This document shows, one piece after another, positions 27,628 through 53,280 of a stretch of DNA of 64,000 bases. The notes below the pieces were generated by a model, which was not told the origin of the DNA, made no database searches, and saw nothing but the letters and a program-made list of their open reading frames with translations. The DNA is from Nitrospirota bacterium (GTDB lineage Bacteria > JACPQY01). The first letter of the stretch is position 1; each line of letters opens with the position of its first letter. The DNA lies in the NCBI GenBank assembly GCA_016180645.1, contig JACPAV010000003.1:248001-312000 (forward strand), written 5' to 3'. A program made the position numbers and the translations under genes.

Positions 27628-27646
27628 GCGTCACCTCCCGCCCGGT

Positions 27647-30600
27647 CTACGCTTCCTCGGACAAGAGCTCGATGTTGAGCCCGAGTCCTTGAAGTTCCTT
27701 GACGAGCACATTGAACGATTCCGGCATGCCGATATCGAACTCGGTCTGCCCCTTGACGATGGCCTGATAGACGCGGTTCCGCCCCGTGACGTCATCCGAT
27801 TTGACCGTCAAAAATTCCTGGAGGGTGTGGGCCGCGCCGTACGCTTCGAGGGCCCAGACTTCCATTTCACCCAAGCGCTGGCCGCCGAAATGGGCCTTCC
27901 CACCGAGCGGCTGCTGGGTCACCAGTGAGTAACCGCCGACGCTGCGGGCGTGGATCTTGTCGTCCACGAGGTGGTGAAGCTTCATCATGTACATGATGCC
28001 GACGGTCACTTTCTGGGCGAAGGGTTCTCCCGTCCGGCCGTCGAACAGGGTCACCTGCCCTTCCACGGGAAGCCCCGAGCGCTTGAGAAGCGCCTCGATG
28101 TCCGCCTCCCCTGCTCCATCGAAGACCGGAGAGGCCAGGTGGATTCCGTCCTGCTCCCCGAGAGCAAATTCCATGATTTCCTTCTGGGTGGCTCCCTTGA
28201 GCCAATCACACACCTCCCGGTCCTCCTTGTGGATGTCCGCCAGGATGGCCCGGATGTCATCGACGGCCTTTTCCTCTCGCACGGCCGCTTCGATGCGCCT
28301 TCCGAGTTCGTGGGAGGCCCATCCGAGGTGGGTTTCCAGAATCTGTCCCACGTTCATTCGGGAGGGGACGCCGAGCGGGTTGAGCACGATGTCGATGGAG
28401 GTCCCATCCTCCATGATCGGCATGTCTTCCACCGGCGCGATGATCGAGACGACACCCTTGTTCCCATGCCGTCCGGCCATCTTGTCCCCCACCGCCAGCT
28501 TGCGCTTCACGGCCACGTACACCTTGACCAGCTTGACCACGCCGGCCTGGAGTTCGTCGCCACTCCGTATCTTTTCAATTTTCTTGTCGAACGATGAATT
28601 GACGAGATCGAGCAGCTCGTACGAGCGTTCCAGGATCTGTTGAAGCTCCTCCTGTGATTCCTCCGAGCTCAGTTCGATCTTACCCAGCAGCTCAAACGGA
28701 ACTTCGTCCAGGACCTTGTCCGAGATCTTCTCACCCTTGTTCACATAGACTTGGCGCTTCTTGGGGTTCTTCAACGCGTCTTTGGCCACCTTGCCGACCA
28801 GCGACGGACGCACCTGGGACAGGGCGTTCTCCTGAATGATGCGGATTTCGTCCTGACGGTCCTGCTCCAGCTTGTTGATGTCGTCCTGCTCGATGGCCTG
28901 GGCGCGCAGATCCTTGCTCACGCCCTTGCGGGTGAAGACGCGCGCATCGATGACCGTGCCGTAGATGCCGGGCGGGACGGTGAGCGACATGTTTTTCACA
29001 TCGCGCCCTTTTTCACCGAAGATCGCGCGCATGAGGCGTTCGTCGGAGGAAAGCTGGGTCTCGCTTTTCGGGGTGATCTTGCCGACCAGGATATCGCTCG
29101 GCTTCACTTCCGCGCCGATCCGGACGATGCCGCTCTCGTCGAGATTCTTGAGGAGTTCCTCGCCGACGTCCGGAATGTCCCGCGTGATTTCCTCCGGCCC
29201 GAGCTTGGTATCCCGCGCCGCGCACTCGAACTCCTCGATGTGGATGGACGTGAAATGATCTTCGCGAACCATCCGCTCGCTGATCACGATCGAGTCCTCA
29301 AAGTTGAATCCCCGCCACGGCATGAACGCCACGAGCGCGTTCTTGCCGAGCGCCAGATCGCCGCCTTCGGTGGCCATCCCGTCGGCTACCACCTGGCCGG
29401 CCACGACCTTCTGGCCGTTCAGGACGATGGACTTCTGGTTGATGCAGGTGTTCTGGTTGCTCCTCTTGAACTTCGTGAGGTTATAAATGTCCACACCCGA
29501 ATCGTTGATGTCTTTCACCGGTTTCTTCGAGCGGATGACGATGCGGGAGGAATCGACGTATTCCACCACGCCGTCCCGTTTTGACATGATGGTCGAGCCG
29601 GAGTCGCGGGCCACGATGGGTTCCATGCCCGTTCCGACCAACGGCGCTTCGGGCCGGATAAGCGGCACGGCCTGCCTTTGCATGTTGCACCCCATGAGGG
29701 CCCGGTTGGCGTCGTCGTGCTCCAGAAAGGGGATGAGGCCGGCGCCCACGGAGATGAGTTGGTTGGGCGACACGTCCATGAAATGCACTTCCTCCGGTTT
29801 GACGAAGGCAAACTCGCCCTTGCTGCGCGCGGTGATCAGATCGCTCGTAAACCGGCCGTGCTTGTCGAGCGGGTTATTCGCCTGCGAGATGACGTATTGT
29901 TCCTCTTCCAGGGCGGTGAGGTACTTCACCTCCCCGGTCGTGCGGGAATCCTTGACCACCATGTACGGCGTCTCGAGGAAACCGAATTCGTTGGTCCGCG
30001 CGTACGTCGAGAGCGACACGATCAGTCCAATGTTCTGCCCTTCCGGCGTTTCGATCGGGCAGATGCGGCCGTAGTGGCTGGGATGCACGTCGCGCACTTC
30101 GAAACCGGCGCGTTCGCGCGTGAGGCCGCCGGCGCCGAGGGCGCTCAGTCGACGCTTGTGGGTCACCTCGGAGAGAGGGTTCGTCTGATCCATGAACTGC
30201 GAAAGCTGACCGGTGTAGTAGAACTCCCGGAGGCTGGCCATGACCGGCTTGATGTTGATGATGTCCCTCGGCATCAGCGTATCGATCTCCTGGCCGCTGC
30301 CGCTGAGGCGCTCCTTCACCGAGCGCGAGAGCCGCATGAGGCCCGACCGGAATTGGCCTTCGACCAGCTCGCCGACGCTTCGCACGCGGCGGTTTCCCAG
30401 GTGGTCCACATCATCCTCGCGTTCCGCGCCCATCTTGATCCGGATGAGGTGTTCCACCACTCCAAGGACGTCTTCCTTCCGGAGGGTCGTGTGTTCCACG
30501 GGCACATCCTGCCGCAGCCGCATGTTCAGCTTGTGCCGGCCCACGCGGGAGAGGTCGTAGCGCTCGGGGTTGAAAAACATATTGTGGAAGAAATCCATCG

Positions 30601-31732
30601 CGATTTCTTCGCTCGTCACGTCCGTGATCCGAAGTTTGCGATAAATGTCGATAATGGCCTCGCGATGGGTCTGAACCTTGTCGCTCGCGATGGTTTTTTG
30701 CATGGAGGGAATGGCCGCCATGCTGTCGACATAGATCACATGGAATTTCTCGACTCCGGCGGCGACGATCTCCTCGATTTTCTCCGACGTCAGCGCCTCA
30801 TTCGTCTTGGCAAGGGTTTCCTTGGTCTTCGGATTCAGGATCTCACGCGCGGTGATCCGATCCTTCAATTCCGACGCCGTCACCGGAATCTCCATCTCTT
30901 CGAAATCCTTCTGTTTCTGAAGCTGAGGGTCGAAAAGCATCTTGACCTTGCGGCGGGCATTGGCCAGGTTTCGAGAGTCTTTGAGGTCGCCGAACATGCT
31001 CGCCCAGAACTGCTCGCGAATCTTGCGCACCAGCTTTTTTCCGTCCACCACGATCTCCTCGACGGGATAGAAGTGTTCGAGGAGGAATTCCGCCGTAAAT
31101 CCCAGGGCCTTTAGGAGAACCGTGGCGGGAATCTTCCGTCGACCGTCGATGCGGACGTACAGGATGTCGTTGGAATCAAACTCAAAATCCAGCCAGGAGC
31201 CCCGGGAAGGGATCAGCCGGGCGATATACGTATTCTTGTCCCGGTCGAAAAGGCACCCCGGCGACCGGTGGAGCTGGTTGACCACCACCCGTTCCACCCC
31301 ATTGATAATGAAGGTTCCGCGATCGGTGATCAGGGGGATCTCGCCGAAATATATTTCGTCCTCCTTCACCACCCGCGTGCTCTTCTGCTTCGTCTCGGGG
31401 TCGAGATCATACAGCGCAAGGCGGAACGTGACCCGCATGGGCGAGGCGAAACTGGCGCCTTTGATCCGGCATTCGTCGATGTCGTACTTCGGTTCCAGCA
31501 GCTTGTACTTCACAAACTCGATGCTGGCCGTCCGCTCGTAGTTCTCAATCGGGAAGATGCTCTTGAAGGCTTTCTGGAGACCCACGTTGCGCCGCTTCTC
31601 CGGCTCCGTCGCCGCCTGCAGAAAATCCGCATAGGACTTCCGCTGGATCTCGATCAGATCCGGAATGTCGACGAGCGGCTTGATCCGCCCGAACGACCGA
31701 CGATATCTTCTCCCCTTGAGCGCCGACGACAT
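27647..31732 (-). CDS. rpoB: RNA polymerase beta subunit
   Basis: [45 protein letters not shown]. Confidence 0.99.
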
Positions 31733-40347: not shown

Positions 40348-41112
40348 TTACCTAATATGAAGCCAACCCATGTATTTTCTTAAGTGTTGCAACGCCTCCC
40401 CCAACGTTGGTGCGGGCGAATCTCCCCGGGAAAGACTAACCACGGTGGGAACGCCCATCGTGGAGAACGGCTCGTCACGTACTTCCGGAAAGGCTCTCGA
40501 GAGGTGCTTAAAAGTCGCCTTCTCCATCTGAGCCGGATATTGTTTCTTCAGTTCATCTACCATCGCGTTAATGTGGGAATAGACAATGTCGCCGTAGGCC
40601 AGCGCCTCATCACTCGTGGGAATATAGCCTTTGTGGACGACTGCATTTCGAAATTCTCGCCATGTACGCGTCTGAGCCTTCGAGGCCCCCGACAGCTCCG
40701 GCTTCACATCTTCAATCGTCGCAGCAGCCGCTCGATTCTCCATCATGTAGACAAAGAGATAGGCCCCGAATTGCCTTTCCGATTGATTGACAACCCACTT
40801 CCAAGTCTGGTCGTATGTCTCATCCACAATGTTGTTCTTGATGGAGATCACTCGCGTGTAATATTCGTAGAACCTCTCCAGCGCCGAGGCCATGCTTGTT
40901 ACGGCCTCTCGGGGATAGCCGTCCAGGAGAGCCATCGCCCCGATCTCGAATAGGACCTCAAACTTCTGCTGTTGCAGAGCCGTGACACTCCTATGGCCTC
41001 TCCCGCAGACCACAATGAACAACCCATCGTCCCTCATTTCGGCCGCCATAACCTCCGGGTCTGCTTGGAAGTTTTCACGCATGCATTGCATGCACGAGAT
41101 CCGTAGTCTCAT
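40348..41112 (-). CDS. Hypothetical protein: N-terminal Zn ribbon plus putative HEPN RNase domain
   Basis: CMQC...CGRGH; helical EAV..MASALE segment; RNAVVH matches the RxxxxH HEPN motif; GGAGG SD. Confidence 0.6.
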   Translation of the reverse strand: MRLRISCMQCMRENFQADPEVMAAEMRDDGLFIVVCGRGHRSVTALQQQKFEVLFEIGAMALLDGYPREAVTSMASALERFYEYYTRVISIKNNIVDETYDQTWKWVVNQSERQFGAYLFVYMMENRAAAATIEDVKPELSGASKAQTRTWREFRNAVVHKGYIPTSDEALAYGDIVYSHINAMVDELKKQYPAQMEKATFKHLSRAFPEVRDEPFSTMGVPTVVSLSRGDSPAPTLGEALQHLRKYMGWLHIR

Positions 41113-41186: not shown

Positions 41187-44100
41187 CTACCCGCCGGACA
41201 TGAAGTCAAAGCAGACCAAGCGCAGGCTCTCACGGCTGAGCTGCGTGGGCTTGCGGTTTGAACCTCCGGCCCCCACGCCCCCGGCGGCCCCATACTTCCC
41301 CATGAGATCCTCTATCACTCCAACCAATCCCCTCACGTCCTTTCCCCTTTGGAAGGCCTTGTGGGCGGACCGCAACTCCGCCACCTGGACGCCCAGCAAG
41401 GGCCGACTCAGGAATCGGATCACTTCGATCGTGCGCTTCCGATCCAGGTCTGGGTGGTTCGCATAGCCTTGAAGAATGGTCGCCAGAGTTTGCTGGATGG
41501 GATCCACTGAGCGCGGCGCAGACTGTAGTGCCTTCTGTTCTTCTAGGGACCTGAGAATGCTCTCGATGATCCTCTCCTGGATTTCGAAGACATTCTTGAA
41601 CATGCTCGGCTCGACCACCCGTGGGGTGTCGCGGTCACAGGCGATCAGATTCCCGATAATGTACCTGTTATCCAGAATGTCATCCGTTTTCGAATCGTAG
41701 TACTTCCAGAAATTCATGACACCCGATCCCGGAACGTCCGCCTGGAAAAAGAAGAAGATCCCCTTGGCTCCCGCCTTTACGAGGCCGGAGTGGATACCAT
41801 CCGGGATCGAATCCAGCATTTCCTTCCCGCCGGCCCCGATGACCCCCCTCAACTGTTGGAGCAGGAATTCGCTGCTTGCCAGTTCCGCGAATTGTTCCTC
41901 CTCCTCCATGACGGCGCCATCTTCCTCGCTGATCCGCCGAAGGGTGTTGAAATTCCGGGGATGAACGGTTTCGCCAAGAACGCTGGCATCTAAGAACCCC
42001 GCCCGATCAATGTCGGCGATTTTTCTGCTCAGTCGCTCGACCAATCCGAGCAGGCGATCCAATCCGGCGTCCGGAAACATGTTGTAGATCCAGAGAACGT
42101 CGAAATCGCTCCCAATGCGATCAATCCGACCCGCTCGCTGGACCATCCTGGTCGGGTTCCAATGGAGGTCGTAGTTGATGAGATGCCCACAGTCCTGGAG
42201 ATTCTGCCCCTCGGAGAGCACGTCCGTTGAAACAAGGATATGAATTTCCCGATCCGTGCCGATCCAGTCGGGCCTGTCGTTTGCCTTGGGGGCGAATCCC
42301 TGGACGATTCGGAGCCGCTCCTTGGGGTCGGCTCCGCTGTCCATCCGGCGGATGCTCACGCCTCCGAGTGATTTCCGGAACGCCTCGGCGGCGGGATTCT
42401 CGGGGTGCCCCAAGTGGCGATACAGGTATCGTGCCGTGTCCTTGTAATGGGTGAAGATCAGGACTCTCTTCCCGAGAAAATCCGTGGAGAGCAGATCCTT
42501 GAGCCGTGAAAGCTTGGCATCGGCCTCGGGTTTGATGTCCTTGATGCGGAGCCAGATGTCGTTAAGGATTTCAACGTCGTGTTGAACGGCCCTGTGGAGC
42601 TTTCGGAGGTCGTAGAGATTCGGATCGACCGTCCCAACAGATTCAAGAACCTTGCGCGCCTCCTCATTGGCGTCAATTTCCTCCGCCCGCGATAGCGGCG
42701 TCGCATCGTCCTCCTCTTCCTCGCTCGCCACGTATCTCATCGCCTTCTCGAAGTCTGAGCTTCTGATCAGACGGCCGCCCAGGATGTATTCCTCGAACGT
42801 CTTCAGGAATGAGAGGGCGCGGCGGACGCTGATTCGAAATGCCTCAACGCTCGACTCGAACCTCTTGAGATAACGGCTCTTGAAAATGCCGACGAGCGCC
42901 TCCTCACGGCCTGCTTCCATCTCGTCCACCTGCACCCCCTCCTTCTTGTAGTCCTCCAAGTTGTAGGGGGCGAGTTTCAACTTGTCGATCCCCGAGACAA
43001 TGCCCTCATAGATACCGGCATAGGTGCGTTCCAAGTCGTAGCGGACGGTCTTCAGTTTTCGCTCCGGGAAATGAATCTTTTTCCCGCGGATCGTGGCCTC
43101 CGGGTAGGCTTTCCGAATGTGCGGACGGGTTCGGCGGATGACCGCTTCTTCCAGGAGGTTGTAGAGCGCAAACGTGGCGCTGTTTGCTCGTGATTCCCGC
43201 CTGGCCCGGAGGAAATACTTGTGCAGGTCTCCGATTCCGCAGGCCGCGAAATAGCTGCGATCACCCTTCGTGACGAGGCAGAATTGATTGTACAGGTCCA
43301 GCAGGTCATTGCTGATCGGCGTGGCCGTCAGCAGGATGATCTTCTTGGGCATGCCGTCCCGGCCCCTGCCCCCGTTGGTGCCGATAATCCTCTCGAGGCT
43401 TCCATACCGTTGGGCCGTGCGATTTCGGAAATTGTGGGATTCGTCCACCAGGAGGACGTCGGCATCGCCGAAGGGAGACGGGTCGAACTCCTCCCGTCCC
43501 AACTCTTCCTGGGAGACAACCGTCGCCGAGATGCTGGCTTCCCGCAGCTCACGCTCCCACATGTCGCGCAGGCTTGCCGGGCAGATGACCAGCGCCTTCT
43601 GGCGCATGTGGTAGGCGAAGTCTTCGAGGAGCTTCTTTCCGATCCACGTTTTCCCGAGGCCGACGGAGTCCGCGACCATGACTCCGTGGTAAATCCCAAG
43701 GATCTTGCGGGCTTTCTTGACTGCGTCCTCTTGGAATTCCGCCAACTCTACCGCTGAGCGCATGCCAGTCAGCGGGGCGTCTTCCAGTTCATCCTTGAAA
43801 TATTCGTAGAGCGCCTTGAGGTAGACTTGGTAAGGCGTGTATTCCTTCTGACCGAATTTCGACGCGTCGAGCAGGTCGATGAGATCGTGCTTGAAATCCC
43901 GCGCGTCCTCCCATTGTCGGTCGTACCATTGTTCCAGCTCAATGATGGCGCGGGCACCCACCTCGCTCTTGAGGAGCTGCCTGTTCTCTACGGTGATTCT
44001 CTCGCTCGGCTTCGCGTCGGAGAGCCAGGCGACGGATCGGGCGGCCTCAGTATCCTCAGCCTCTGTCTTTTCCAGAAGAACTTTGTGCGCGAGATTCAGT

Positions 44101-44591
44101 TCCCGGTTTGACGTAAGGCCGGGCACGGTGAAGTTGGAGGACCCGACGATGGCCACGATGGGCCGAAAGCGATCAAACAGCATCTGCTGCCCCGGTCGGT
44201 CCGAGTAGAACAGCCAACATTTGGCGTGGAGAAATCCCTCATCGTGGAGACGCACCAAGACCGATTCACGGCGTAGGTAGGCGATCAGGTCCTCGACAAG
44301 GCTTAGGGTCCTTTCCTCAAAGGGGAGGGCTTCAAGGTCCTTGCGAATCAGGCCCCGAATCGCCGCCGGATCGGGCCGGAGGCCAATCTGTTCCCCTGTG
44401 GTCGGTTCAGAGCCAAGCAGGAGTCGAAGATTGCCAAGCCCGGACAGGCCCTCTTTCACCAGGCCGAAGCCGCCGACCGTGAAATAGGCCGAGGCCACAT
44501 CGAGGGATCGGCCCTTGTGCGCTTCGAGAAGCGCCTTGAGGACACCCTGCAAATGGTGTGTTTGATTGTCGATGACATAGGGTATTTTCAT
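41187..44591 (-). CDS. PLD-nuclease / SNF2-family helicase fusion
   Basis: PLD motif LHAK...GSSNFT.PG...NRELN; ADSVGLGKT, DESHNFRN, TATP; STDVLSEGQNLQ, NYDLHWNP..MVQRAGRIDRIG. Confidence 0.9.
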   Translation of the reverse strand: MKIPYVIDNQTHHLQGVLKALLEAHKGRSLDVASAYFTVGGFGLVKEGLSGLGNLRLLLGSEPTTGEQIGLRPDPAAIRGLIRKDLEALPFEERTLSLVEDLIAYLRRESVLVRLHDEGFLHAKCWLFYSDRPGQQMLFDRFRPIVAIVGSSNFTVPGLTSNRELNLAHKVLLEKTEAEDTEAARSVAWLSDAKPSERITVENRQLLKSEVGARAIIELEQWYDRQWEDARDFKHDLIDLLDASKFGQKEYTPYQVYLKALYEYFKDELEDAPLTGMRSAVELAEFQEDAVKKARKILGIYHGVMVADSVGLGKTWIGKKLLEDFAYHMRQKALVICPASLRDMWERELREASISATVVSQEELGREEFDPSPFGDADVLLVDESHNFRNRTAQRYGSLERIIGTNGGRGRDGMPKKIILLTATPISNDLLDLYNQFCLVTKGDRSYFAACGIGDLHKYFLRARRESRANSATFALYNLLEEAVIRRTRPHIRKAYPEATIRGKKIHFPERKLKTVRYDLERTYAGIYEGIVSGIDKLKLAPYNLEDYKKEGVQVDEMEAGREEALVGIFKSRYLKRFESSVEAFRISVRRALSFLKTFEEYILGGRLIRSSDFEKAMRYVASEEEEDDATPLSRAEEIDANEEARKVLESVGTVDPNLYDLRKLHRAVQHDVEILNDIWLRIKDIKPEADAKLSRLKDLLSTDFLGKRVLIFTHYKDTARYLYRHLGHPENPAAEAFRKSLGGVSIRRMDSGADPKERLRIVQGFAPKANDRPDWIGTDREIHILVSTDVLSEGQNLQDCGHLINYDLHWNPTRMVQRAGRIDRIGSDFDVLWIYNMFPDAGLDRLLGLVERLSRKIADIDRAGFLDASVLGETVHPRNFNTLRRISEEDGAVMEEEEQFAELASSEFLLQQLRGVIGAGGKEMLDSIPDGIHSGLVKAGAKGIFFFFQADVPGSGVMNFWKYYDSKTDDILDNRYIIGNLIACDRDTPRVVEPSMFKNVFEIQERIIESILRSLEEQKALQSAPRSVDPIQQTLATILQGYANHPDLDRKRTIEVIRFLSRPLLGVQVAELRSAHKAFQRGKDVRGLVGVIEDLMGKYGAAGGVGAGGSNRKPTQLSRESLRLVCFDFMSGG

Positions 44592-44599
44592 CACGACCC

Positions 44600-46015
44600 T
44601 CAATGTTTCGTGTCGACAAGATAACCCGATCGGCCCGAGCACCGGTAGCCATTTTTGTCTTTGTGGGGGTTTAGACGTCCGTTATTCTTCGTTCGACTGA
44701 ACTTCTTCCCGCAGTAGGAACATTCAAACACGTAGGTGGGTCTCCCCCGTCCCCGTGCACTCGAAGACCGAATTCGAGCGCCTGAGCCGCTGCCCTCTGT
44801 GGACCGTTGGGCCGTCGGAGGCGTGAGGAAGGGACCGGAAGCGGTCAGCTCAACCGCATACCTGGGCACGAACGGAATTTGCGTCACGGTTGCTCCCTGA
44901 ATCCGATCCACGCGATAGGATCTGGATTCTCCTGTTTGGTGCTTGACAGCGTAGAGAAGGAAACGACCGTCCTTGGTTCGCCGCAACGAATAAGGCTCGA
45001 TGAGCCGTCGGCTGCCTTGGTATCCAAGCTCTACGCAGAGCCGGTTCGCTGCTGCGAAACGAATCGTCTCAAGCGGAACCGGTGAGTGCCAAGCCTGTGC
45101 CATGGCGGGCGGGCGCCATGGCTCGTCAATCTCGGTGACGGTGATCGGGAACGCAGGCAGTTCCTTCTTCTGTGCGCTGCCTTGCATCCATTCGAGAACC
45201 CCGGGCAGTTCCTGCCAAAACTGCTCGAAGGGCGGGAGGGTTGGCAACTGGTGTTTGAGCATGCTTTCCCAATCCGCTTGCAACTCCCGGAGGCCGGGGT
45301 GATTCGTGAGATCCACCATTGTCGGAACGGAGAAACCTTTGAAGGCGCACTTCTTCTCAAGGGCATCCATCAGGAGGTGACGGTCCGGCGCGGCTCCATT
45401 GTACCGATGCAGGTGGATGACATCGTAGAGGTCTCGCGGCCTCAGCCGATCCCTCAGCGCCCGCAACTTCTCCGCGAATACCTCCTCGAATCGATAGCAG
45501 AGTATTTCGATTCCGCCGCCCGGTCCGTCCGAATACGGATGGTGCACGGGACGCTTCGCCGCCTCCAGCACGACCACTTCATCGGCCGTCAAATCGAGCC
45601 TGATCCGCGGCAGATCGCCGCGCATCCCCAAGGGGCCTCTGAATCCGAGCCGCCCTTGTGCCGACTGACCGCCCCTGGGATTCGTGTAGATATCGAAGCG
45701 GTGCGCATCGGCAGGCAGCTCTATGCCGGTCGCCTCATAAGTCCATGTAGCGACTTCGGCAAACGTTTTCGAAAGGAATTCCTCCTTCAGGTGATCCGGA
45801 TCTCTCAAGGTGAAATCCAGGTCTTCCGAGAAACGGTACGTCTCGAAAAAGCATTTCTTGAGACATGTGCCTCCCTTGAAGATCCAGCTTGAGCCAAGTG
45901 CATGGTGGTGCGCGATGCCCGCCAATAACCAACCCAGGACATAGTCCTTCTCAACGATGTTCGGGGCGAGCCCGAATTCTCTCGCGAGGTCCATGATTTC
46001 TTGCTTGTCGATCAC
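44600..46015 (-). CDS. AbiEii-family nucleotidyltransferase toxin fused to a WYL domain and C-terminal Zn finger
   Basis: EKDY, FKGGTCLKK, RFSEDLDF, AEKLRA, PRDLYD; then Y....RLIEPYSL...LLYA...RSYRVDRI (WYL); CSYC-x15-H-x7-C; GTGA overlap with AbiEi. Confidence 0.85.
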   Translation of the reverse strand: MIDKQEIMDLAREFGLAPNIVEKDYVLGWLLAGIAHHHALGSSWIFKGGTCLKKCFFETYRFSEDLDFTLRDPDHLKEEFLSKTFAEVATWTYEATGIELPADAHRFDIYTNPRGGQSAQGRLGFRGPLGMRGDLPRIRLDLTADEVVVLEAAKRPVHHPYSDGPGGGIEILCYRFEEVFAEKLRALRDRLRPRDLYDVIHLHRYNGAAPDRHLLMDALEKKCAFKGFSVPTMVDLTNHPGLRELQADWESMLKHQLPTLPPFEQFWQELPGVLEWMQGSAQKKELPAFPITVTEIDEPWRPPAMAQAWHSPVPLETIRFAAANRLCVELGYQGSRRLIEPYSLRRTKDGRFLLYAVKHQTGESRSYRVDRIQGATVTQIPFVPRYAVELTASGPFLTPPTAQRSTEGSGSGARIRSSSARGRGRPTYVFECSYCGKKFSRTKNNGRLNPHKDKNGYRCSGRSGYLVDTKH

Positions 46016-46851
46016 TCCGGTTTTTCCCTTGGCCAACTTTCAGGCACCCACAGACGCCATCTGGTGATGAGCCGTTTGCCCCGAACCGCCGGGTCAAGTT
46101 GGGCGTTGCCCGTGGGCATCTTCGCCCTGCACATCTTGAGGGATTCCTTTTCGTCGGGCGCGTACCGCTCCAACAGGTAGCCGAGGCGTTTGAACACCGC
46201 ACCGTTACCGAGTCGAATCGCGTAATCAATGATCCGGTTCATGTCCCTGCTCCTTAATCTCAGGTAGCTTGAGAACATGTCCGCCATGGAGCGAATTCCG
46301 CCTCCGACCTTGGGATCATCCAGCATGTCGAGAATCGTCCGCGCTTCATCTGATACGAACACCTTGACTTGCCCCCGCCAAACCGGCTTCAGCCCGAAGA
46401 GGACACCTTCAGGCACAGTCTTCAGCAGAAATGGTGTGCCTTTCAGCACCGGATTTCGTATTCGCGGACGTCGGGTTGTCATGACGACGACCGCCCGGAA
46501 AATCTGTTCCGTCAGCCCCCAATGGGCTGCCGCGCTCCACCCGCCGATGTAGCAAGGAGAATAGAGTTTCTCGGCGATCAGCCAAGGATCTTCGAGGGGA
46601 ACATCGGCCGTCCTGGATTCGAGCGGTACGGGGACATAGAGCCCACGGCGAACCCGCGAGAGCCACCCCTTCTTGGCCCAGCGGGACAGCAGCTTCGCCG
46701 CTGCGGTCGAACTGAATCCAAGCGCTCGGCTGGCCTCTTTTAGAGACACAGCTCCCTTGGAGGTCCGGAGGACCTCGGCTAGTCTTTGCCTATCGAGCCT
46801 CCCGAGTCCACCCACTTCACCCTTGGCCAGTGCAGTATATCCTAAGCGCAT
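46012..46851 (-). CDS. AbiEi-family type IV antitoxin / transcriptional regulator
   Basis: wHTH with KGWL.RVRRGLY; YIGGWSAA.HWGLTEQI; SD..RTILD; KRLGYLLE. Confidence 0.88.
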   Translation of the reverse strand: MRLGYTALAKGEVGGLGRLDRQRLAEVLRTSKGAVSLKEASRALGFSSTAAAKLLSRWAKKGWLSRVRRGLYVPVPLESRTADVPLEDPWLIAEKLYSPCYIGGWSAAAHWGLTEQIFRAVVVMTTRRPRIRNPVLKGTPFLLKTVPEGVLFGLKPVWRGQVKVFVSDEARTILDMLDDPKVGGGIRSMADMFSSYLRLRSRDMNRIIDYAIRLGNGAVFKRLGYLLERYAPDEKESLKMCRAKMPTGNAQLDPAVRGKRLITRWRLWVPESWPREKPE

Positions 46852-46896
46852 TTATTCATACTAGAGGTGAATAGCTGCTCTGTCAATATACTCACT
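46829..46896 (-). promoter_or_regulatory. abiE promoter with candidate operator inverted repeats
   Basis: TTGACA-17-TAGTAT (46886-46858); TATTCA-n9-TGAATA across the -10; outer IR agtgcagtatat / atatact-cact. Confidence 0.65.
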
Positions 46897-47010
46897 TTTT
46901 CCGCCTATCCGTTGGCAGCGAGAATGGGGAGCGACCTCAAACGAGTTTTGGTGGCTGCTGCCTGCCCGGTTCTTCGGAGAGCGTCTGATTGTCGATGACG
47001 TACGGGATAT

Positions 47011-48762
47011 TCATTGGAAAATGAATAGGGCGATCACGCCGCGCGCTATTGAATCACTATCCTCAATTTGGCGATCGAAGCTCAGCATCTCCGAGACGAA
47101 TTTGCTCATCCCCTGAATGTCATAATGCTCGCCACGCGCGGCCAAAGTATTGAATATGTAGCTCACCCCTGCCCGAGTCGAATTGTCGGCCCAGCTCAAT
47201 TCTCTACTCTCAAGAGCAAATCCGCCGAACACGAAAATGTGCTTCATTGTGTAGTCGAGCATTGTGGGGAAGGCTTCGTCTTGAAGAAGCTGCGGCCGTG
47301 AATGCAATAGCTGGTACAAGTCAGTGGCCAGCCAACGCGCGAGTTGGCCAGCTTGCCGGGAGCAGGAAGGAACAGCCTCGCTCGGAAGCCGGTCGATACA
47401 TTCCCGCACGGCTTCGCGCATCAGACCCGTAAGGAAGCTGGTGATTTCAAACGGTTTGAGCACGAGTATGCGCATCCATAACTCAATCAGCGCACCAAGC
47501 GAAACGAGGGCGTAGGCTGGCTGGTCTCTACGCTTTTCGAGGGCGAGGTCCAATAGCCTGTTCCCTGTCCACATTGCGCTTCGAAACGCCTCTGGGTTTC
47601 CGGAACGATGCAACCGACGTCTCAAGCTCGCGAAGCGTTTGGCTACACCATCTGGACTCTCCACCAACATCGCAACTGTCATGATTTGCCCGAAGCTCGT
47701 GACGAATAGATCCGTAATGCCCGCATAAGTGGAAGCGATCCACCGTTCCAAAAAGCTGTCAATGTCGTCGTGGAGGTAGTGGATTGCCGATACCGCCTCC
47801 TTCAGATCATCCTCGTTTTGAGGTCGCACAGGTATCAATTGGCGCAGCCTCTCAGCGAGGTGGATCATGGTTATTCCAACCTGATTCGGTATGCGCTCGT
47901 GCGCAAGGGCACGACCCGCCTCCGCAAGCGCGAAAACACGTTTGGATGCGATGCCGATTTGGTCCGGCCTCTTCATCATCTGAGCCAGCTTCTTCCCGAT
48001 CAATCCAATACATTCCGAGAAACTGATCAGGTAGCGCATTTGGACGAAAAAGAACGCACGTTCTTCCAGCCATGCTGCCGCAGCCATCGGATCTTCATCG
48101 CACTCGAAAAGCTTGGCATTACAACCAAAGCCCAAAAGACCCATTGCCGTGGACCACATCTCGTGTTCTTCGCTTTGAATGTGAATCTGGATGAGTACCT
48201 CGATGTATATGTTGACGGCAACTCGGTCTCGCACTCCTTCCCATGTACGCGTCTCAAGTTCTCTCAGACCCACCGTAAAACACTCGTCTACCAGCGCCTC
48301 CTCCGATTGCCGAATCCAAAATGATAGCTGTTGGTAGAGGGCGTCGGTGTCGGGATGGAGCAACAGTTTTCGACGGTTTTCCGCGGGCGGTAATCGAACC
48401 TCCAAGACCCGCCTCCATGCTCGCCGCATTATTTCGTGTGGTGTAACCATTCGGATCATGGCCCATAAACAGCCCGCGAAACAGCCCGCGTAGACAACAC
48501 CCGCGAGGAGGACTGAGTCGATCATGTCCTGAGGAAACCATCCTAAGAATAGGCCGCTGCTTAGAACGATCGGCGATGCTGAGAACACGGCAAGGGTGAT
48601 CAGCAGCCATTTTCCTTGTCTTGCCCAAAAGTCCCTATCGGCGAGAATCCTGATGCTATCGAGGCGTCCTCCCCATACAAGCTGAAGGATTGCGACGGCA
48701 AGGCCGCCAAATGTTGCAAGTGCCAGGCCGAGATATCGTAGGGCCTCCGCAGGATTATCCAT
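47011..48762 (-). CDS. Hypothetical membrane protein: about 3 N-terminal TMs (DUF2254-like) and a long helical cytosolic domain
   Basis: 583-aa ORF with hydrophobic N-terminus; visibly AT-richer than flanking housekeeping genes. Confidence 0.6.
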   Translation of the reverse strand: MDNPAEALRYLGLALATFGGLAVAILQLVWGGRLDSIRILADRDFWARQGKWLLITLAVFSASPIVLSSGLFLGWFPQDMIDSVLLAGVVYAGCFAGCLWAMIRMVTPHEIMRRAWRRVLEVRLPPAENRRKLLLHPDTDALYQQLSFWIRQSEEALVDECFTVGLRELETRTWEGVRDRVAVNIYIEVLIQIHIQSEEHEMWSTAMGLLGFGCNAKLFECDEDPMAAAAWLEERAFFFVQMRYLISFSECIGLIGKKLAQMMKRPDQIGIASKRVFALAEAGRALAHERIPNQVGITMIHLAERLRQLIPVRPQNEDDLKEAVSAIHYLHDDIDSFLERWIASTYAGITDLFVTSFGQIMTVAMLVESPDGVAKRFASLRRRLHRSGNPEAFRSAMWTGNRLLDLALEKRRDQPAYALVSLGALIELWMRILVLKPFEITSFLTGLMREAVRECIDRLPSEAVPSCSRQAGQLARWLATDLYQLLHSRPQLLQDEAFPTMLDYTMKHIFVFGGFALESRELSWADNSTRAGVSYIFNTLAARGEHYDIQGMSKFVSEMLSFDRQIEDSDSIARGVIALFIFQ

Positions 48763-48822: not shown

Positions 48823-51800
48823 TCACTTTGATCCTTCCACGATGGCGATTTCGCCATCGGTGAGGCCGTAGAGGCGACAAACAGTCCGATCAATCTCCCT
48901 CTCGATTTCCTTCGCATCTCGCTTCTTTTCGGATACTTCGGCTACCAGCCCTGCCAACCTTTCGCGGTCCCGCTCTGGGAAGGCAGGAATCGGTATTTCA
49001 CCAACGTATGTGGATCGCAGTTCGTAAGCCCCGCCTTCGAGCTTGGCGGCGACCTTGTCGAGGAACCACCACGCAACTCGCGAATTAAGGACCGCCAGAA
49101 GGGTCAAATCCCCGGAAGGTACGATCCAGGTCTTGTCGTTGGACAGGAAGGGCTTCGACGTGAAAGCGAATTGCTGATAGGTTGCGATGACTTGGTATCG
49201 AATCGTCGGCCTCCCGAATTCGGCGTAGTAGTCGATGCTGTCCTGGATTTCGTACCATTTGTATGAACCCGGCTTTCTGCCGCCCGGCACCCCAGGCGTA
49301 AGGCGTTTCTTGAACGGGAGAAGGTGCTCCTTGACTGCCGGGTAGCTGTTGATGTCAATCCCGCGCCTCGTAAAGATCAAGTACAACCCCGCCCATTCGA
49401 CGCGCCAGCGTTTGATGTCACGGCCCCGCAGGAAAGGCTTGATGATCTGATCGCTCTTGGGATCCGCGGCAATCAACTTCTGACGCTTCGCCCCGTCGAT
49501 CACGAACGCCTCGTTGTAGCCGGTCTTGATGCCATAGTAGAATTTGTCCCCGATCACCTCCCGCAACGGCCTCCCGCCCGCCCGAATCTTCTCCAAGAGT
49601 TTCAGCACTTCCGGCCTCTGGAGGGTCCATCCCTCGTCACGAAGAGTCCGAATGAGGATGGGCACCCCCCGCGTCTCGACCGTTTCCTTCACGTTTTCGG
49701 CCTCTCCCATCGTTTCCACGGAAAGCGTTTTCACTTGATGGCCTTCCACTGGATTTTCTTTCTGGGCGATTAGAACCAATGGGTACGCCGTCGCCTCCGG
49801 GAAGAGCGGCAGATCCCGGAAATCGATGATCTTTTCGACGGACTGCTTCTTCAGATATTTTCGCAAAGCTTCTCCGTAGCCGGCCCTCAAATACTTGTTG
49901 GAGGTGATCATTCCAAACCGCCCTCCCACCCGGCACAGGCCAAGACCCCGAGAGTAGAAATACACATAGACGTCCGCAACTCCGGAGTAAACATCCTTGT
50001 AGCAGACTTCATAAAACGGTTTGTCCTGTCCCAGCCCTTCCTGCCGGACGTACGGTGGATTTCCGACTACGGCGTCGAATCCGGCGCCTTCCAAACGCTC
50101 GATGGTCTGCTGGGTCCCCGGGCGCGGGCCATAGAAGACCTCCGGGAACTCGATCTCCCAATGGAAGAACCGCTTTTCCTCAGAGGCCCGCAACGCAGCC
50201 TCCAGGAGTTTCTTGTTTTCAGGGGACAGCTTCGCCTTGTCGGGCTTCAGGGACCACTCCGGCGCCGTCCGGTCCCGAAGGAACTCCTCGACTCGATTGT
50301 GAACGACCTTCTTCTTTCCCTTTCCTGACGCAACCGGTTCATTCCCGAACCACTGGCTCGCGTACGCGTCGAACAACCTCTTGAAGGGCGCAAGATACTC
50401 TACGGCCAGATTGTATTGCTTACGAGACTCTCGCGTCTGAGCGGATGTGACATCCGGCAGCGCACCCACTTGAATCATGGCCCCGGCAGCGGCCTTGACG
50501 CCTGCGAACTGGGTGCCGCCCAGCAGATTCAACTGGCCCTTCTGGACGTCCTGGAGGTCTTTTTCAGAAACACCGATCAGCGAGTTCCCGCAACGGAGGT
50601 GATGGTCCAGGAACGACAGCGGAGCGCCAAGCGTGAAACAGTCGAGCCAGAGGGAAACCTTGGCCAATTCGACCGCCATGGGGTTGAGGTCCACTCCGTA
50701 AATGCACCGTTTCAGGACGTGCCGTTTCAGCAGATTCACGTCCGTAAGCCGCCCCCGGTCGATCGAGATGCCCCGTTCATCCATCTCGGAAAAGATCGTA
50801 TTGCGCATCCGCTCCAGATAGGCGGCGACGGGATTCCACGGGAAGGCATTCAGAAAATCGAGTGTTTTGTCCGTGATGAAGTCCACGGCCTCCACAAGGA
50901 AATGTCCGGAGCCCATCGCGGGGTCGAGTACCTTGATATTGAAAAGCTCGTCCACCAGTTCTTGCCCAACGAGATCTGCCTTGCTCGCCGGCTCAGGCTT
51001 GATGCCTTGCTTCCCCAGGGCCTCCTGTTTCTTAAAGAAGGCTTGTCGCGCCTGCTGGGCTTCGCGGAGTTTCGGCCGCATGGCCTCGAATTTCTCCTTG
51101 AAAACGGGACCGATGGCGTGTTCGACGATGTATTTCACGATGTAGTCCGGCGTGTAGTAGGACCCCGTAGCCTTCCGTTCCCGTTTGTTATTCTCAAGGT
51201 AGGACTGCCCCTTCCTGACAATGCGTTCCTGTTTCTCGGCCTTCTCCTTCGCGTTGGCATCCAGTTCCTCGAAGGGAACATAGAATTCCCGGTTCTTTTC
51301 TTTGACGATCGCGAGTTTCTCGCCGGCAATCCGAAGCTTGAATTCCAGCAGACCCTCATAAATCGAACCGAGTTGGCGGACGCCGAGCGACTTGTAGTCG
51401 ATGAATACAAGCTCAAGCAGCTTCGGATCGGCATCCCTCGACAGGCGGTCCAGCGCGGGGGCGAGGAACGCATCCGCCACTTTGGCGGTGTTGAGGAATC
51501 GTGCGGACTGGGCTTCCGGCGTTTCGTCGTCCTTGTCGGGCTTCGTCAGGAACAGGCCGCCGTTGTACATCGGGACATTCATTGCGGGTTCGCCCTCGTC
51601 CACGACCCTGAACAATCTCAGCAGACGATCGTACAGACCATAGGAATCCTGCCTGAAGGCTTTTCCCAGGTTCTTCGCGGATTCGTCCTCAATCTTTCCG
51701 CCTGACTCGGCGATCTCCTTCTTGAGCTTCGTCAGGCTGGATTCGAAGTATCCTCTGACTTCTCTGACCGGCAACAAATCTCTCGCCTCCGCATAGAGAA

Positions 51801-53220
51801 GGAAAAGAATCCGGTACAGAGGCGTGAGCGTCCCCTGAAAAATCCGGTCGAGCGTCTCTTCGGTGAACGCGGACTTGGGGTCGACCTGTTCGCGAATGGA
51901 ATGGATGAATCCGGATGCCAAATGCGGAAAGACATCCTCAAATACCCGTGTCTTTAGCCGCTCTCCCAGTTCTTTCGCGTACTCCTCGCTTTCGACCACA
52001 AGACGGTCCAGGAGGGATAGGTGAACCTTCTTCCCCTCGCGTTCCATTTCCTGCTTCTCGAATGCGGATCGACGGAAGACCGCCCAGAAATACCTGAACG
52101 AATCCGCGAAATCGCCGGATCGAGGACCCGACTCGGCCAGCACCTCATCGAGGTCGATCTCGTAGTAGTTGGTCGCCCTTGAATGCGTTTTCTGGGAATA
52201 GAGCCGCCAAAGCTTCCCGTTCGTCACGATGACCCACGGCGACTCCCCCTCTTCAAGCAAGCTCACGACGACGGCGCCTGGATTCTCTTCGGGGGTCTCC
52301 TTGTCGCGCCTGTCATCCTTACCGTCCAGCGATCTCGCCCACGGATAGACGAGGCATCCCGCGAGAAGAGTCTTCGGATCGTCTGGAGAATGGAGGCGAT
52401 AGTCCGCCTCTGAAACCGGGCTTCCGGAGCGCTTTCCCTCGGCGCACTTGAAGCCCAGGGCATCCAAGACCGGCACCACAAGCTCCTTCCGTAGAACCGA
52501 CTCGCTCTTATTGACGAACCGGTCGGCCGCACCCTGGTAGAGAGTTCGCAGGCGCAGATAGACCGGTTTCGGATCCTCTTTCCATGCGGAAGACAAGTCG
52601 GGCAGCCGTTTGAGGAGGTAGTAGTCGGAGAAGATCGCACGGTTGTTGAAATGGTCCTCCGACCAGTCCGCGGTGGCGTAGGCTCCGAGGAGCTTGTCGT
52701 ATTGGGCGAAGGCGTCGCTCTCCGTCCACGTGAAGCGTCGGAGGACTCTGAGATGAACCCTCTCGGGCTTTAGCCGATCAACCGTAAGAATCCTTGGGCG
52801 GATGCCCACCTGTTTCTGGCCGATTCCGGCGGGTTCCTGCGTGTCCGGTGGGAGGTATTTTTCCAGGATAACGAAATCGAGCCGTTCATAGTCGCTCGTC
52901 AAAACCAGCAGGTAGTTCCCGGCCCTGTTGCGGAAGGCGCGGGCCAGCGTACGCGTGTGGGAGATATTGACACTTGACAGTTCGAGCAGATACACCTGAA
53001 ACAGACCACCCTCCTGACTTGCGATCAGTTCGATGTTCTTGATCGGCCGTGTGGCTCCCTCCGCGGTAATTCCCAAATTCGCAGCGGTCTGTTTTGTCCG
53101 ACCCGAGGTATCGTAGCCAAGCCTGGTGAAGAGCGCGGCTACTGCATCCGGGGATGATAGCGGCTGAACGTCGTGGTGGGTCAGTTCAAGGTCAAGAACG
53201 AGTTTCGACGCTTCATTCAC
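48823..53220 (-). CDS. Type IIG/Eco57I-like N6-adenine DNA methyltransferase with TaqI-C-like TRD
   Basis: LGSIYEGLL, RKATGSYYTP, motif I VLDPAMGSGHFL, YGVDLNPMAVELAK, motif IV GNPPY, YYGIKTG; start GTG 53220 (or 53256). Confidence 0.9.
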   Translation of the reverse strand: MNEASKLVLDLELTHHDVQPLSSPDAVAALFTRLGYDTSGRTKQTAANLGITAEGATRPIKNIELIASQEGGLFQVYLLELSSVNISHTRTLARAFRNRAGNYLLVLTSDYERLDFVILEKYLPPDTQEPAGIGQKQVGIRPRILTVDRLKPERVHLRVLRRFTWTESDAFAQYDKLLGAYATADWSEDHFNNRAIFSDYYLLKRLPDLSSAWKEDPKPVYLRLRTLYQGAADRFVNKSESVLRKELVVPVLDALGFKCAEGKRSGSPVSEADYRLHSPDDPKTLLAGCLVYPWARSLDGKDDRRDKETPEENPGAVVVSLLEEGESPWVIVTNGKLWRLYSQKTHSRATNYYEIDLDEVLAESGPRSGDFADSFRYFWAVFRRSAFEKQEMEREGKKVHLSLLDRLVVESEEYAKELGERLKTRVFEDVFPHLASGFIHSIREQVDPKSAFTEETLDRIFQGTLTPLYRILFLLYAEARDLLPVREVRGYFESSLTKLKKEIAESGGKIEDESAKNLGKAFRQDSYGLYDRLLRLFRVVDEGEPAMNVPMYNGGLFLTKPDKDDETPEAQSARFLNTAKVADAFLAPALDRLSRDADPKLLELVFIDYKSLGVRQLGSIYEGLLEFKLRIAGEKLAIVKEKNREFYVPFEELDANAKEKAEKQERIVRKGQSYLENNKRERKATGSYYTPDYIVKYIVEHAIGPVFKEKFEAMRPKLREAQQARQAFFKKQEALGKQGIKPEPASKADLVGQELVDELFNIKVLDPAMGSGHFLVEAVDFITDKTLDFLNAFPWNPVAAYLERMRNTIFSEMDERGISIDRGRLTDVNLLKRHVLKRCIYGVDLNPMAVELAKVSLWLDCFTLGAPLSFLDHHLRCGNSLIGVSEKDLQDVQKGQLNLLGGTQFAGVKAAAGAMIQVGALPDVTSAQTRESRKQYNLAVEYLAPFKRLFDAYASQWFGNEPVASGKGKKKVVHNRVEEFLRDRTAPEWSLKPDKAKLSPENKKLLEAALRASEEKRFFHWEIEFPEVFYGPRPGTQQTIERLEGAGFDAVVGNPPYVRQEGLGQDKPFYEVCYKDVYSGVADVYVYFYSRGLGLCRVGGRFGMITSNKYLRAGYGEALRKYLKKQSVEKIIDFRDLPLFPEATAYPLVLIAQKENPVEGHQVKTLSVETMGEAENVKETVETRGVPILIRTLRDEGWTLQRPEVLKLLEKIRAGGRPLREVIGDKFYYGIKTGYNEAFVIDGAKRQKLIAADPKSDQIIKPFLRGRDIKRWRVEWAGLYLIFTRRGIDINSYPAVKEHLLPFKKRLTPGVPGGRKPGSYKWYEIQDSIDYYAEFGRPTIRYQVIATYQQFAFTSKPFLSNDKTWIVPSGDLTLLAVLNSRVAWWFLDKVAAKLEGGAYELRSTYVGEIPIPAFPERDRERLAGLVAEVSEKKRDAKEIEREIDRTVCRLYGLTDGEIAIVEGSK

Positions 53221-53280
53221 GCCTTGAAATATCGGCCAGTTCGACCGCTGGGTCAACTCGCACGGTCAGGAAAGAGAACC

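Follow-up and report, generated by a model that had tools for sequence, protein, structure and literature searches.

AbiEi/AbiEii of Streptococcus agalactiae and Lactococcus lactis and MenA/MenT (DUF1814–COG5340) are the closest described systems to the locus analyzed here. Their toxins belong to the same Pfam family, adopt a MenT-like fold and share the catalytic motifs, among them the serine preceding D-x-D, and abiEi likewise lies directly upstream with an overlap. Characterized AbiEii/MenT toxins are single-domain proteins of about 190–300 aa, whereas the toxin described here has about 180 more residues, consisting of a WYL domain, a linker and a zinc module. According to the available portions of two reports, AbiEi binds AbiEii and induces its auto-phosphorylation (10.64898/2026.01.19.700257; PMC11375011). 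The WYL fold is shared with DriD, PafBC, CapW and BrxR, which operate in defence or DNA-damage contexts; these proteins, however, are HTH–WYL–WCX transcription factors acting at promoters, whereas the WYL domain of the toxin sits on an enzyme. Two of them, DriD and PafBC, are activated by ssDNA, as stated in the accessible parts of their descriptions. TePif1 helicase resembles the toxin in carrying WYL at the C terminus of a nucleic-acid enzyme, but in the available part of its description this domain helps a helicase to bind ssDNA as an accessory module, whereas the enzyme here is a nucleotidyltransferase. The combination of an AbiEii core and WYL is also found in the fusion of Makarova et al. 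2014 (PMC4012209) and in the PADLOC model PDLC02317. As far as the accessible parts of these sources go, both leave out the linker and C2HC module (residues 404–478), on which the supplementary fusion list of PMC4012209 may say more.

The toxin gene (44600..46015, minus strand) lies within the window, the whole 64,000-nucleotide stretch of Nitrospirota bacterium DNA that was analyzed, and was assigned as abiEii with a WYL and zinc tail from its ORF and from Pfam and PADLOC matches. Its stop codon occupies 44602–44600. The longest ORF starts at TTG 46036 and encodes 478 aa; judged from the sequence, GTG 46015 is the likely start, giving 471 aa, the same length as a database copy (P0002). Residue numbering used here begins at TTG 46036, not at GTG 46015. 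The first-pass annotation had described an in-frame fusion of AbiEii, WYL and a zinc module starting at 46015. Pfam, the WYL fold and the conserved zinc ligands bear out this architecture, the start stands as the likely GTG, and every motif quoted, from KGGT through CSYC-x15-H-x7-C, is found in the translation. The fusion is real rather than a chance arrangement, as its motifs are invariant in relatives; conservation was read from an alignment of 27 toxin sequences with 59–70% identity. The AF2 model of the toxin has a pLDDT of 82.3, and the PADLOC AbiEii model PDLC02317 aligns to residues 8–403 (E = 5.6e-184), covering the core and WYL. No RNA run was listed as containing this DNA, whereas four DNA runs from a single study contain it, three of which may be its source.

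The DUF1814/AbiEii nucleotidyltransferase core (45212..45928, minus strand; residues 37–275) was delimited by Pfam, the alignment and Foldseek. Pfam AbiEii (PF08843) matches residues 37–275 with an E value of 2.7e-39 (135.9 bits versus a cut-off of 22.5), and the 260-position PADLOC model PDLC02304 matches the core alone (5e-67). Nucleotidyltransferases of this kind are marked by G-G-[ST], [DE]-x-[DE], E-K and D-x-x-D, all of which are present in the toxin core, with KGGT at residues 54–57, RFSEDLDF at 68–75, EK at 189–190 and RDLYD at 201–205. KGGT, S70-E-D72-L-D74, E189-K190 and R201-D-L-Y-D205 are invariant in 27/27 sequences, and the catalytic motifs align with those of MenT4 and AbiGII chains. 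The core as modelled has a MenT-like fold: Foldseek returned TglT/MenT3 (5.1e-8) and MenT4 (2.3e-7), together with JHP933 and MenT1.

The WYL domain (44885..45073, minus strand; residues 322–384) was identified by both Pfam and Foldseek and is modelled with a pLDDT of 85–95. Pfam WYL (PF13280) matches residues 322–384 with an E value of 7.1e-8 (32.8 bits versus a cut-off of 21.8; 34.8 bits when the C-terminal part was searched alone), and this span, nt 45073–44885, agrees with the earlier placement at about 45075–44890. The stretch ELGYQGSRRLIEPYSL...LLYA...RSYRVDRI corresponds to toxin residues 336–379. In a Foldseek search with the AF2 model, the C-terminal region proved to model as WYL, matching the DriD C-domain (9cu3_A and 7tzv_A) over 72 columns with an rmsd of 1.4 Å, a probability of 1.00 and 25% identity, and also matching PafBC, BrxR and CapW; the matched DriD C-domain is a structure with ssDNA. 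A WYL-only profile searched against PDB sequences retrieved no WYL chain and only chance matches (E = 0.3). The WYL core is invariant in the 27-sequence alignment, and the basic or aromatic residues R344, R353, Y374 and R375 are kept in 27/27. Pfam detected no HTH and no WCX domain in the toxin.

The distribution of this WYL clade was then surveyed among representatives, where 942 matches were obtained and 25 mid-length ones sampled. AbiEii accompanied WYL in 20 of the 25, five consisted of WYL only and none carried another effector. No match of at least 838 aa to the WYL–zinc module was found, which is weak evidence against long fused forms. A further 405 matches were short and resemble pieces of this toxin; two that were aligned are collinear with it and begin at internal Met positions. 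Stand-alone or otherwise fused WYL–zinc modules were rejected, given the resemblance of the short matches to toxin fragments and the absence of another effector among the 25.

Downstream of WYL, a basic Ser/Gly/Arg/Thr linker (44747..44839, minus strand; residues 400–430) is predicted to be disordered, with a pLDDT of about 30, and varies in length and sequence among relatives in the 27-sequence alignment. It leads into the C2HC zinc module (44603..44746, minus strand; residues 431–478), whose ligands C439, C442, H458 and C466, spaced as C-x2-C-x15-H-x7-C, are invariant in 27/27 aligned sequences and 41/41 tails. The C2HC motif is carried by 67 of 80 related loci, and in these 67 relatives the median net charge is +5 for the linker and +6 for the zinc tail, the tail being strongly basic in every case (67/67). 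About 10/80 relatives are without the zinc tail, which makes it dispensable in some lineages.

As modelled, the zinc module comprises three strands and no helix and is zinc-ribbon-like. All Pfam zinc models fell under their cut-offs (best Zn_ribbon_8, 18.1 bits versus 34.4). The module sequence shows a weak likeness to C2H2 DNA-binding fingers (best E = 0.002–0.03), but a classical C2H2/C2HC finger was rejected on these marginal matches and the lack of a beta-beta-alpha fold in the model. Of the C2HC Zn finger proposed at first pass, the four conserved ligands therefore stand and the classical finger family and fold do not. In a fold search with the zinc tail, the zinc module at the MCM N terminus scored best (Z = 4.3; 43 residues aligned at an rmsd of 2.7 Å), followed by ribosomal zinc ribbons (Z = 3–3.9), with all matches below Z = 5; an ESM Atlas search with residues 395–478 gave a best score of 0.83, under the level of a lead. 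A literature search found no description of AbiEii with a C2HC tail, and within the literature searched the conserved zinc tail is so far undescribed.

The fusion as such is neither rare nor new, contrary to the initial impression. Relatives of the toxin are encoded in at least 591 species genomes, a PADLOC HMM exists for them, and the WYL–DUF1814 fusion has been in print since 2014, listed by Makarova et al. under 'AbiGII-like nucleotidyltransferase' (PMC4012209); the available part of that paper also proposes that it senses nucleotides or nucleic-acid fragments. The toxin gene of the window is thus an ordinary member of a catalogued subfamily. Nor is it a 'self-contained' sensor–effector, as had been supposed. 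The abiEi antitoxin gene (46012..46851, minus strand; 279 aa), recognized by its AbiEi_4 domain and by the PADLOC AbiEi model PDLC02271 (1.5e-111), precedes it, and the TGA stop of abiEi overlaps the toxin GTG start within GTGA. Because abiEi is directly upstream of the toxin in 80/80 related loci and overlaps it here, the two genes form one module.

The best explanation, to which we assign an overall probability of roughly 0.45, has several joint parts: the gene encodes the toxin of an AbiEi–AbiEii (MenAT-like) two-gene toxin–antitoxin/abortive-infection module, the WYL–zinc tail would serve as a nucleic-acid ligand gate, and the pair is an autonomous mobile cassette, often lodged inside restriction–modification (R–M) operons, that does not depend on the adjacent helicase. 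By analogy with MenT1, MenT3 and S. agalactiae AbiEii, the core would add nucleotides to tRNA 3′ ends and block translation, and AbiEi would silence it by inducing it to phosphorylate its own active-site serine, S70 in this protein. WYL, linker and zinc module, with a net charge of about +11, would together bind single-stranded nucleic acid and most likely act in cis as the gate, so that WYL would bind ssDNA or ssRNA built up in the course of infection or DNA damage, freeing or stimulating the toxin. We infer the tRNA target, the phosphorylation and the ligand gating alike from these analogous systems. A narrower scheme is doubtful though conceivable, in which ssDNA or ssRNA arising from phage DNA cutting or from a disabled restriction system frees the toxin from AbiEi-induced auto-phosphorylation and shuts down translation through tRNA 3′-end modification.

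Several observations weigh against gating. A shared sensor would be expected on several effectors, yet AbiEii was the only effector found with this WYL clade; about 10/80 relatives manage without the zinc tail, which counts against the role given to it. A second explanation, possible but on balance unlikely, is that WYL, linker and zinc module form an RNA-binding arm that chooses or recruits tRNA or another RNA for the nucleotidyltransferase, increasing affinity or determining specificity without sensing any signal. WYL domains bind nucleic acid in single-stranded form, which is the state of the tRNA 3′ end. The one enzyme-fused WYL that has been studied, that of TePif1, is an accessory substrate-binding module that the enzyme needs for high-affinity ssDNA binding, according to the accessible part of that work. 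Restriction of the clade to AbiEii and the uniformly basic tail would suit such an arm equally, and near-invariant WYL surface residues would be expected if the ligand were a conserved one in the cell, for instance tRNA. On the other hand, close stand-alone AbiEii subfamilies, as well as MenT and AbiEii themselves, operate without an arm of this sort, and structurally the WYL part is closest to ligand-sensing regulators.

A further alternative places the tail on DNA: it would join AbiEi at the operator or elsewhere on DNA and tune operon autoregulation rather than enzyme activity. A sigma-70-like promoter with an imperfect 25-nt inverted repeat (46834..46892, minus strand) is located at the abiEi start, the promoter-like site itself (46886–46858, 10/12 matches) falling inside the repeat. 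It may be the AbiEi operator, although promoter-like sites are not more numerous in the region than expected by chance. Together with the fact that most WYL proteins are transcription factors and with the faint likeness of the zinc module to DNA-binding fingers, this is consistent with a tethering role. We nevertheless consider the role very unlikely, as an HTH domain is missing from the toxin, the helix-free zinc model is not that of a classical finger, and solved WYL domains, as presented in the available portions of the literature, bind single-stranded and not operator DNA.

The surroundings of the pair bear on the remaining parts of the ligand-gate reading. An HKD (PLD)–SNF2 helicase (41187..44591, minus strand), supported by Pfam, PADLOC, NCBIfam and relatives, begins with ATG 44591, 8 nt past the toxin stop on the same strand; its best PADLOC match is the generic 'HKD+Snf2'. 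On the other side lie a Type IIG/DrmMI-like N6-adenine methylase (48823..53256, minus strand; 1477 aa), whose pairing with the helicase is conserved, and, between it and the abiE cassette, a 583-aa ORF without a family match (47011..48762, minus strand) that is absent from all 39 related helicase loci (0/39). Assignment of the flanking genes to DISARM was rejected (NCBIfam DrmD, 142 bits versus a cut-off of 610), and DUF1998 (DrmB) was absent by Pfam from all six island ORFs. Between the 583-aa ORF and abiEi, a relic of the first 11 codons of the helicase (MNIPYVIDNQT; 46982..47014, minus strand) was found, its ATG sharing an ATGA overlap with the stop codon of the 583-aa ORF. Inserted into the methylase–helicase system, the abiE cassette left this relic as its left-hand scar, and the duplicated helicase 5′ end flanking the cassette identifies the insertion as secondary.

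Neighbourhood surveys separate the pair from the helicase, which belongs to the host methylase–helicase system and not to AbiE. Activation of the toxin specifically by nucleic-acid fragments from the adjacent PLD–SNF2 helicase, the single sensor–effector system envisaged in the first-pass annotation, is the least likely reading and was rejected on these counts: the 8-nt spacing, 8/57 loci of related helicases in which an AbiE pair occupies the corresponding upstream position (the two toxin ORFs examined among these eight are short and WYL-less) and one distant locus (L043) where a WYL-form toxin precedes such a helicase are set against a helicase or methylase relative in just 1/80 toxin-family loci, a helicase family that keeps its methylase in 38/39 loci and mostly lacks AbiE, the scar of secondary insertion and the different neighbours of the pair in the other 79 loci. 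Some of those 79 loci carry type I hsd genes, and most have no R–M gene by tblastn. By Pfam, 13/24 loci have R–M genes within three ORFs of the pair to one side or the other; by tblastn they were found in 17/80 loci, and in 15 of the 47 whose flanks each reach 3 kb or more. PrrC and RloC are anticodon nucleases encoded inside type I R–M operons. They are tRNA-directed suicide enzymes placed between R–M genes, a position shared by many relatives of the AbiE pair, but they are nucleases unrelated to the nucleotidyltransferase of the toxin, and the loci analyzed here gave no sign of R–M proteins restraining it.

The accessible portions of the literature surveyed explain the silencing of AbiE/MenT toxins by their antitoxins but name no trigger that activates them in infection. 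A large natural subfamily with a built-in WYL domain offers an experimental handle on this question, and the copy in the window adds a conserved zinc tail and a clear cassette insertion into a restriction-like operon. If the tail does act as a ligand gate, AbiE/MenT-type toxins would have their first known direct molecular trigger and WYL domains their first demonstrated case of enzyme gating in cis. The repeated lodging of the cassette inside restriction–modification operons would then also be explained.

An AbiEii nucleotidyltransferase core continues in frame into a WYL domain in the toxin gene (44600–46036, minus strand, likely start GTG 46015), as the first-pass annotation had proposed. 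On the 478-aa product counted from TTG 46036, Pfam matches above the curated cut-offs were obtained for AbiEii (residues 37–275, E = 2.7e-39) and WYL (residues 322–384, E = 7.1e-8), and every motif quoted in that annotation is present. When the window copy was aligned with 26 relatives (59–70% identity), the nucleotidyltransferase motifs KGGT, S70-E-D72-L-D74, E189-K190 and R201-D-L-Y-D205 and the WYL core residues E347-P-Y-S, R353, Y374-R375 and I379 were invariant, and residues 400–430 varied in length and sequence. An AlphaFold2 model built from this 27-sequence alignment (mean pLDDT 82.3) is confident in the nucleotidyltransferase, WYL and zinc parts, with a disordered linker (pLDDT about 30). 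Foldseek against the PDB matched the core to TglT/MenT3 (5.1e-8), MenT4, JHP933 and MenT1. The WYL part was matched to the ssDNA-bound DriD C-domain (72 columns, r.m.s.d. 1.4 Å, 25% identity), followed by PafBC, BrxR and CapW; because Foldseek places the C-terminal part with WYL domains, the earlier assignment of this region is borne out.

The toxin gene is real, intact and well conserved, and it belongs to a catalogued, widespread subfamily. Residues 8–403, spanning core and WYL, match the 396-position PADLOC AbiEii model PDLC02317 (E = 5.6e-184); core-plus-WYL is therefore an AbiEii subfamily already on record. In a word-indexed protein search, 7775 of 8000 scored candidates passed E 0.001; the best 120 of these 7775 were 403–493 aa long with 97–100% query coverage, bar one partial record, and 110 of the 120 carried both precomputed Pfam domains (AbiEii and WYL). 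A one-genome-per-species scan yielded at least 591 confirmed relatives, 80 of which were taken for neighborhood work; these loci span Pseudomonadota, Nitrospirota, Desulfobacterota-type MAGs, Acidobacteriota, Elusimicrobia, WOR-3, Atribacterota and Latescibacterota. Four further AbiEii-family matches with open frames of 174–307 aa lie on contigs C21, C29, C31 and C2 of the genome searched for additional copies (G000), where the window's copy is the only long WYL–zinc form. Makarova et al. 2014 (PMC4012209) include among WYL fusions one to an 'AbiGII-like nucleotidyltransferase (DUF1814)'. Full-text literature searches, with the supplement on fusions of that paper outside their scope, returned no study of the AbiEii–WYL fusion or the zinc tail. 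A sensing hypothesis for the subfamily is already published; the novel elements are the conserved zinc tail, the restriction of this WYL clade to AbiEii among the representatives sampled, and the insertion scars.

Of the C2HC zinc finger noted earlier, the four ligands stand, but a classical finger fold is not supported. C439, C442, H458 and C466 are invariant in the 27-sequence alignment and in 41 of 41 aligned tails, and the C-x2-C-x15-H-x7-C pattern occurs in 67 of the 80 loci (80 of at least 591 relatives). Among the 13 without it, ten encode shorter proteins (401–431 aa) ending just past WYL, one (L026) diverges inside the zinc module, where a frameshift is probable, and two could not be parsed. 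None of the Pfam zinc families matched the tail at its cut-off, and a C-terminal profile against the PDB returned classical C2H2 fingers only, at marginal E (0.002–0.03). Modeled alone (pLDDT 86.1), the tail forms three strands and no helix. It is predicted to be a zinc-ribbon-like C2HC module; its closest folds, the MCM N-terminal zinc module (Z 4.3) and, at Z 3–3.9, ribosomal zinc ribbons, match too weakly for family assignment. Median net charges in the 67 tails (linker +5, zinc part +6) are compatible with nucleic-acid binding, short of proof. Several database proteins (P0137, P0207 and other short matches) are C-terminal WYL–zinc-only fragments with internal Met starts on long contigs, one having eight member sequences on nine contigs; such fragments could derive from disrupted toxin genes or persist as proteins in their own right.

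Contrary to the earlier suggestion, the toxin is not self-contained. All 80 loci (of at least 591 relatives) have a homolog of the window AbiEi immediately upstream of the toxin, and in the window the stop of abiEi (46012–46851, minus strand) overlaps the toxin GTG start as GTGA. A candidate autoregulatory operator lies at the abiEi start, where an imperfect 25-nt inverted repeat encloses a sigma-70-like site (10/12 matches), but promoter-like sites in this region do not exceed the chance number. Recent work (10.64898/2026.01.19.700257; PMC11375011) shows that AbiEii, when bound by AbiEi, auto-phosphorylates on an active-site Ser/Thr, namely T65 in the S. agalactiae toxin and T39 in MenT1, with MenT3 alike; on this evidence AbiE is reclassified as type VII. 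By its place in the motif, invariant S70 appears to be the counterpart of the phosphorylated residue; MenT4 has a serine aligned with it.

Six co-oriented minus-strand ORFs occupy 40.3–53.3 kb of the window. Besides the abiE pair (abiEi antitoxin and abiEii toxin), family searches identified an Eco57I/type IIG-like (DrmMI-like) N6-adenine methylase (48823–53256, 1477 aa) and an HKD(PLD)–SNF2 helicase (41187–44642, likely ATG 44591, 1151 aa); ORFs of 583 aa (47011–48762) and 254 aa (40348–41112) had no Pfam, PADLOC or NCBIfam family match. G+C is 0.55–0.59 across the island versus about 0.60–0.62 nearby. The neighboring genes appear to be housekeeping ones, with QueC and an MFS transporter at one end of the island and a sigma-54 response regulator plus a histidine kinase at the other. 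Elsewhere in the window, ORFs of 1383 and 1361 aa (23476–31732) adjoin the ribosomal protein L1 gene (32735–33430) and by size and position look like rpoC and rpoB, only L1 having been scanned; if so, a core gene cluster lies about 10 kb from the defense island.

The helicase and methylase travel together. Across 80 metagenome loci encoding helicases 60–77% identical to the window's (L084–L163), the methylase lies upstream in 38 of the 39 that extend 7 kb or more in that direction. The intervening gap ranges from about 0.1 to more than 7 kb and holds varied cargo, including an AbiEi/AbiEii pair in 8 of the 57 loci that extend at least 2.5 kb upstream. Of the two island ORFs lacking a family match, the 583-aa one was found in 0 of 39 loci and the 254-aa one in 0 of 57. 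Methylase and helicase therefore form a conserved system with variable cargo between them; the unit scores below DISARM and BREX cut-offs. Toxins in those eight loci are 29–35% identical to the window toxin over matches of about 800 nt, and the two ORFs read (274 and 291 aa) leave no room for a WYL–zinc tail. In the window, the 583-aa ORF stop overlaps, as ATGA, the ATG of a relic that nearly copies the first 11 helicase codons (47014–46982 versus 44591–44559, minus strand); its 14-nt core occurs only at these two sites in 64 kb (0.02 chance matches expected). With the intact helicase start, the relic therefore brackets the abiE cassette between two helicase 5'-end copies, and the duplication reads as an insertion scar. 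On the simplest reading, the ancestral order was methylase, 583-aa ORF and helicase, with abiEi–abiEii inserted later.

In relatives, locus-specific imperfect direct repeats (19–59 nt, 83–100% identity) bracket the abiE pair at no fewer than 8 of the 76 loci that could be tested, a count that omits three artefactual loci and two or three uninspected weaker matches; they suggest a recurrent insertion mode duplicating part of the target. Repeat-flanked relatives are L003, L007, L014, L015, L029, L030 and L031, with L059 and L062 uninspected; the downstream copy in L007, about 70 nt beyond the toxin stop, sits at the tblastn-placed start of an hsdM-like gene. Pfam scans at 24 loci, taking the three ORFs closest to the pair in either direction, placed restriction–modification (R-M) genes (including type I HsdR/S/M, type ISP, N6_N4 and C5 methylases) near it in 13 (L001, L005, L007, L018, L022, L025, L027, L028, L029, L031, L050, L052 and L053), the remainder having plasmid, transposase, other defense or housekeeping neighbors. 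Queried with 11 R-M proteins, tblastn found R-M genes at 17 of 80 loci, or 15 of the 47 in which 3 kb or more is available to either side; the limited query set makes these figures lower bounds. In about 11 loci, hsdM starts roughly 10–125 nt from the toxin stop. On the opposite strand and just upstream of the pair, L006 (7899–8933) and L010 (6050–7087) encode a separate HTH–WYL–WCX regulator (BrxR/CapW-like), which places two distinct WYL proteins next to each other. LRAT-like and PycTM or patatin genes adjoin this regulator.

Architecture, fold, intact catalytic residues, antitoxin partner and cassette behavior are shown here. By analogy with homologs, the core would nucleotidylate tRNA 3' ends and AbiEi would silence it via phosphorylation; the WYL–zinc tail would most likely act as a ligand gate, and we assign this whole explanation a probability of roughly 45%. 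The gate is favored because the WYL part most resembles ssDNA-sensing WYL regulators in structure, the basic WYL pocket residues are invariant, the literature cited here names no AbiE/MenT trigger, and the cassette often sits in restriction operons, where ssDNA fragments arise. A close but less probable reading makes the tail a substrate handle: among representatives sampled, the WYL clade is found exclusively on AbiEii, its very high conservation is as for a ligand like tRNA, and TePif1, the only studied enzyme-fused WYL in the portion of the literature consulted, uses it as a substrate-binding module. That the tail serves as a DNA tether or co-repressor is improbable. About as improbable is the earlier idea of a trigger specific to the adjacent helicase, as helicase/methylase relatives occur near only 1 of 80 toxin relatives (L043; 26% and 37% identity) and helicase loci mostly lack AbiE. 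The window copy is unexceptional; the AbiEii–WYL–zinc subfamily as a whole offers a good experimental route to the trigger of AbiE/MenT toxins.
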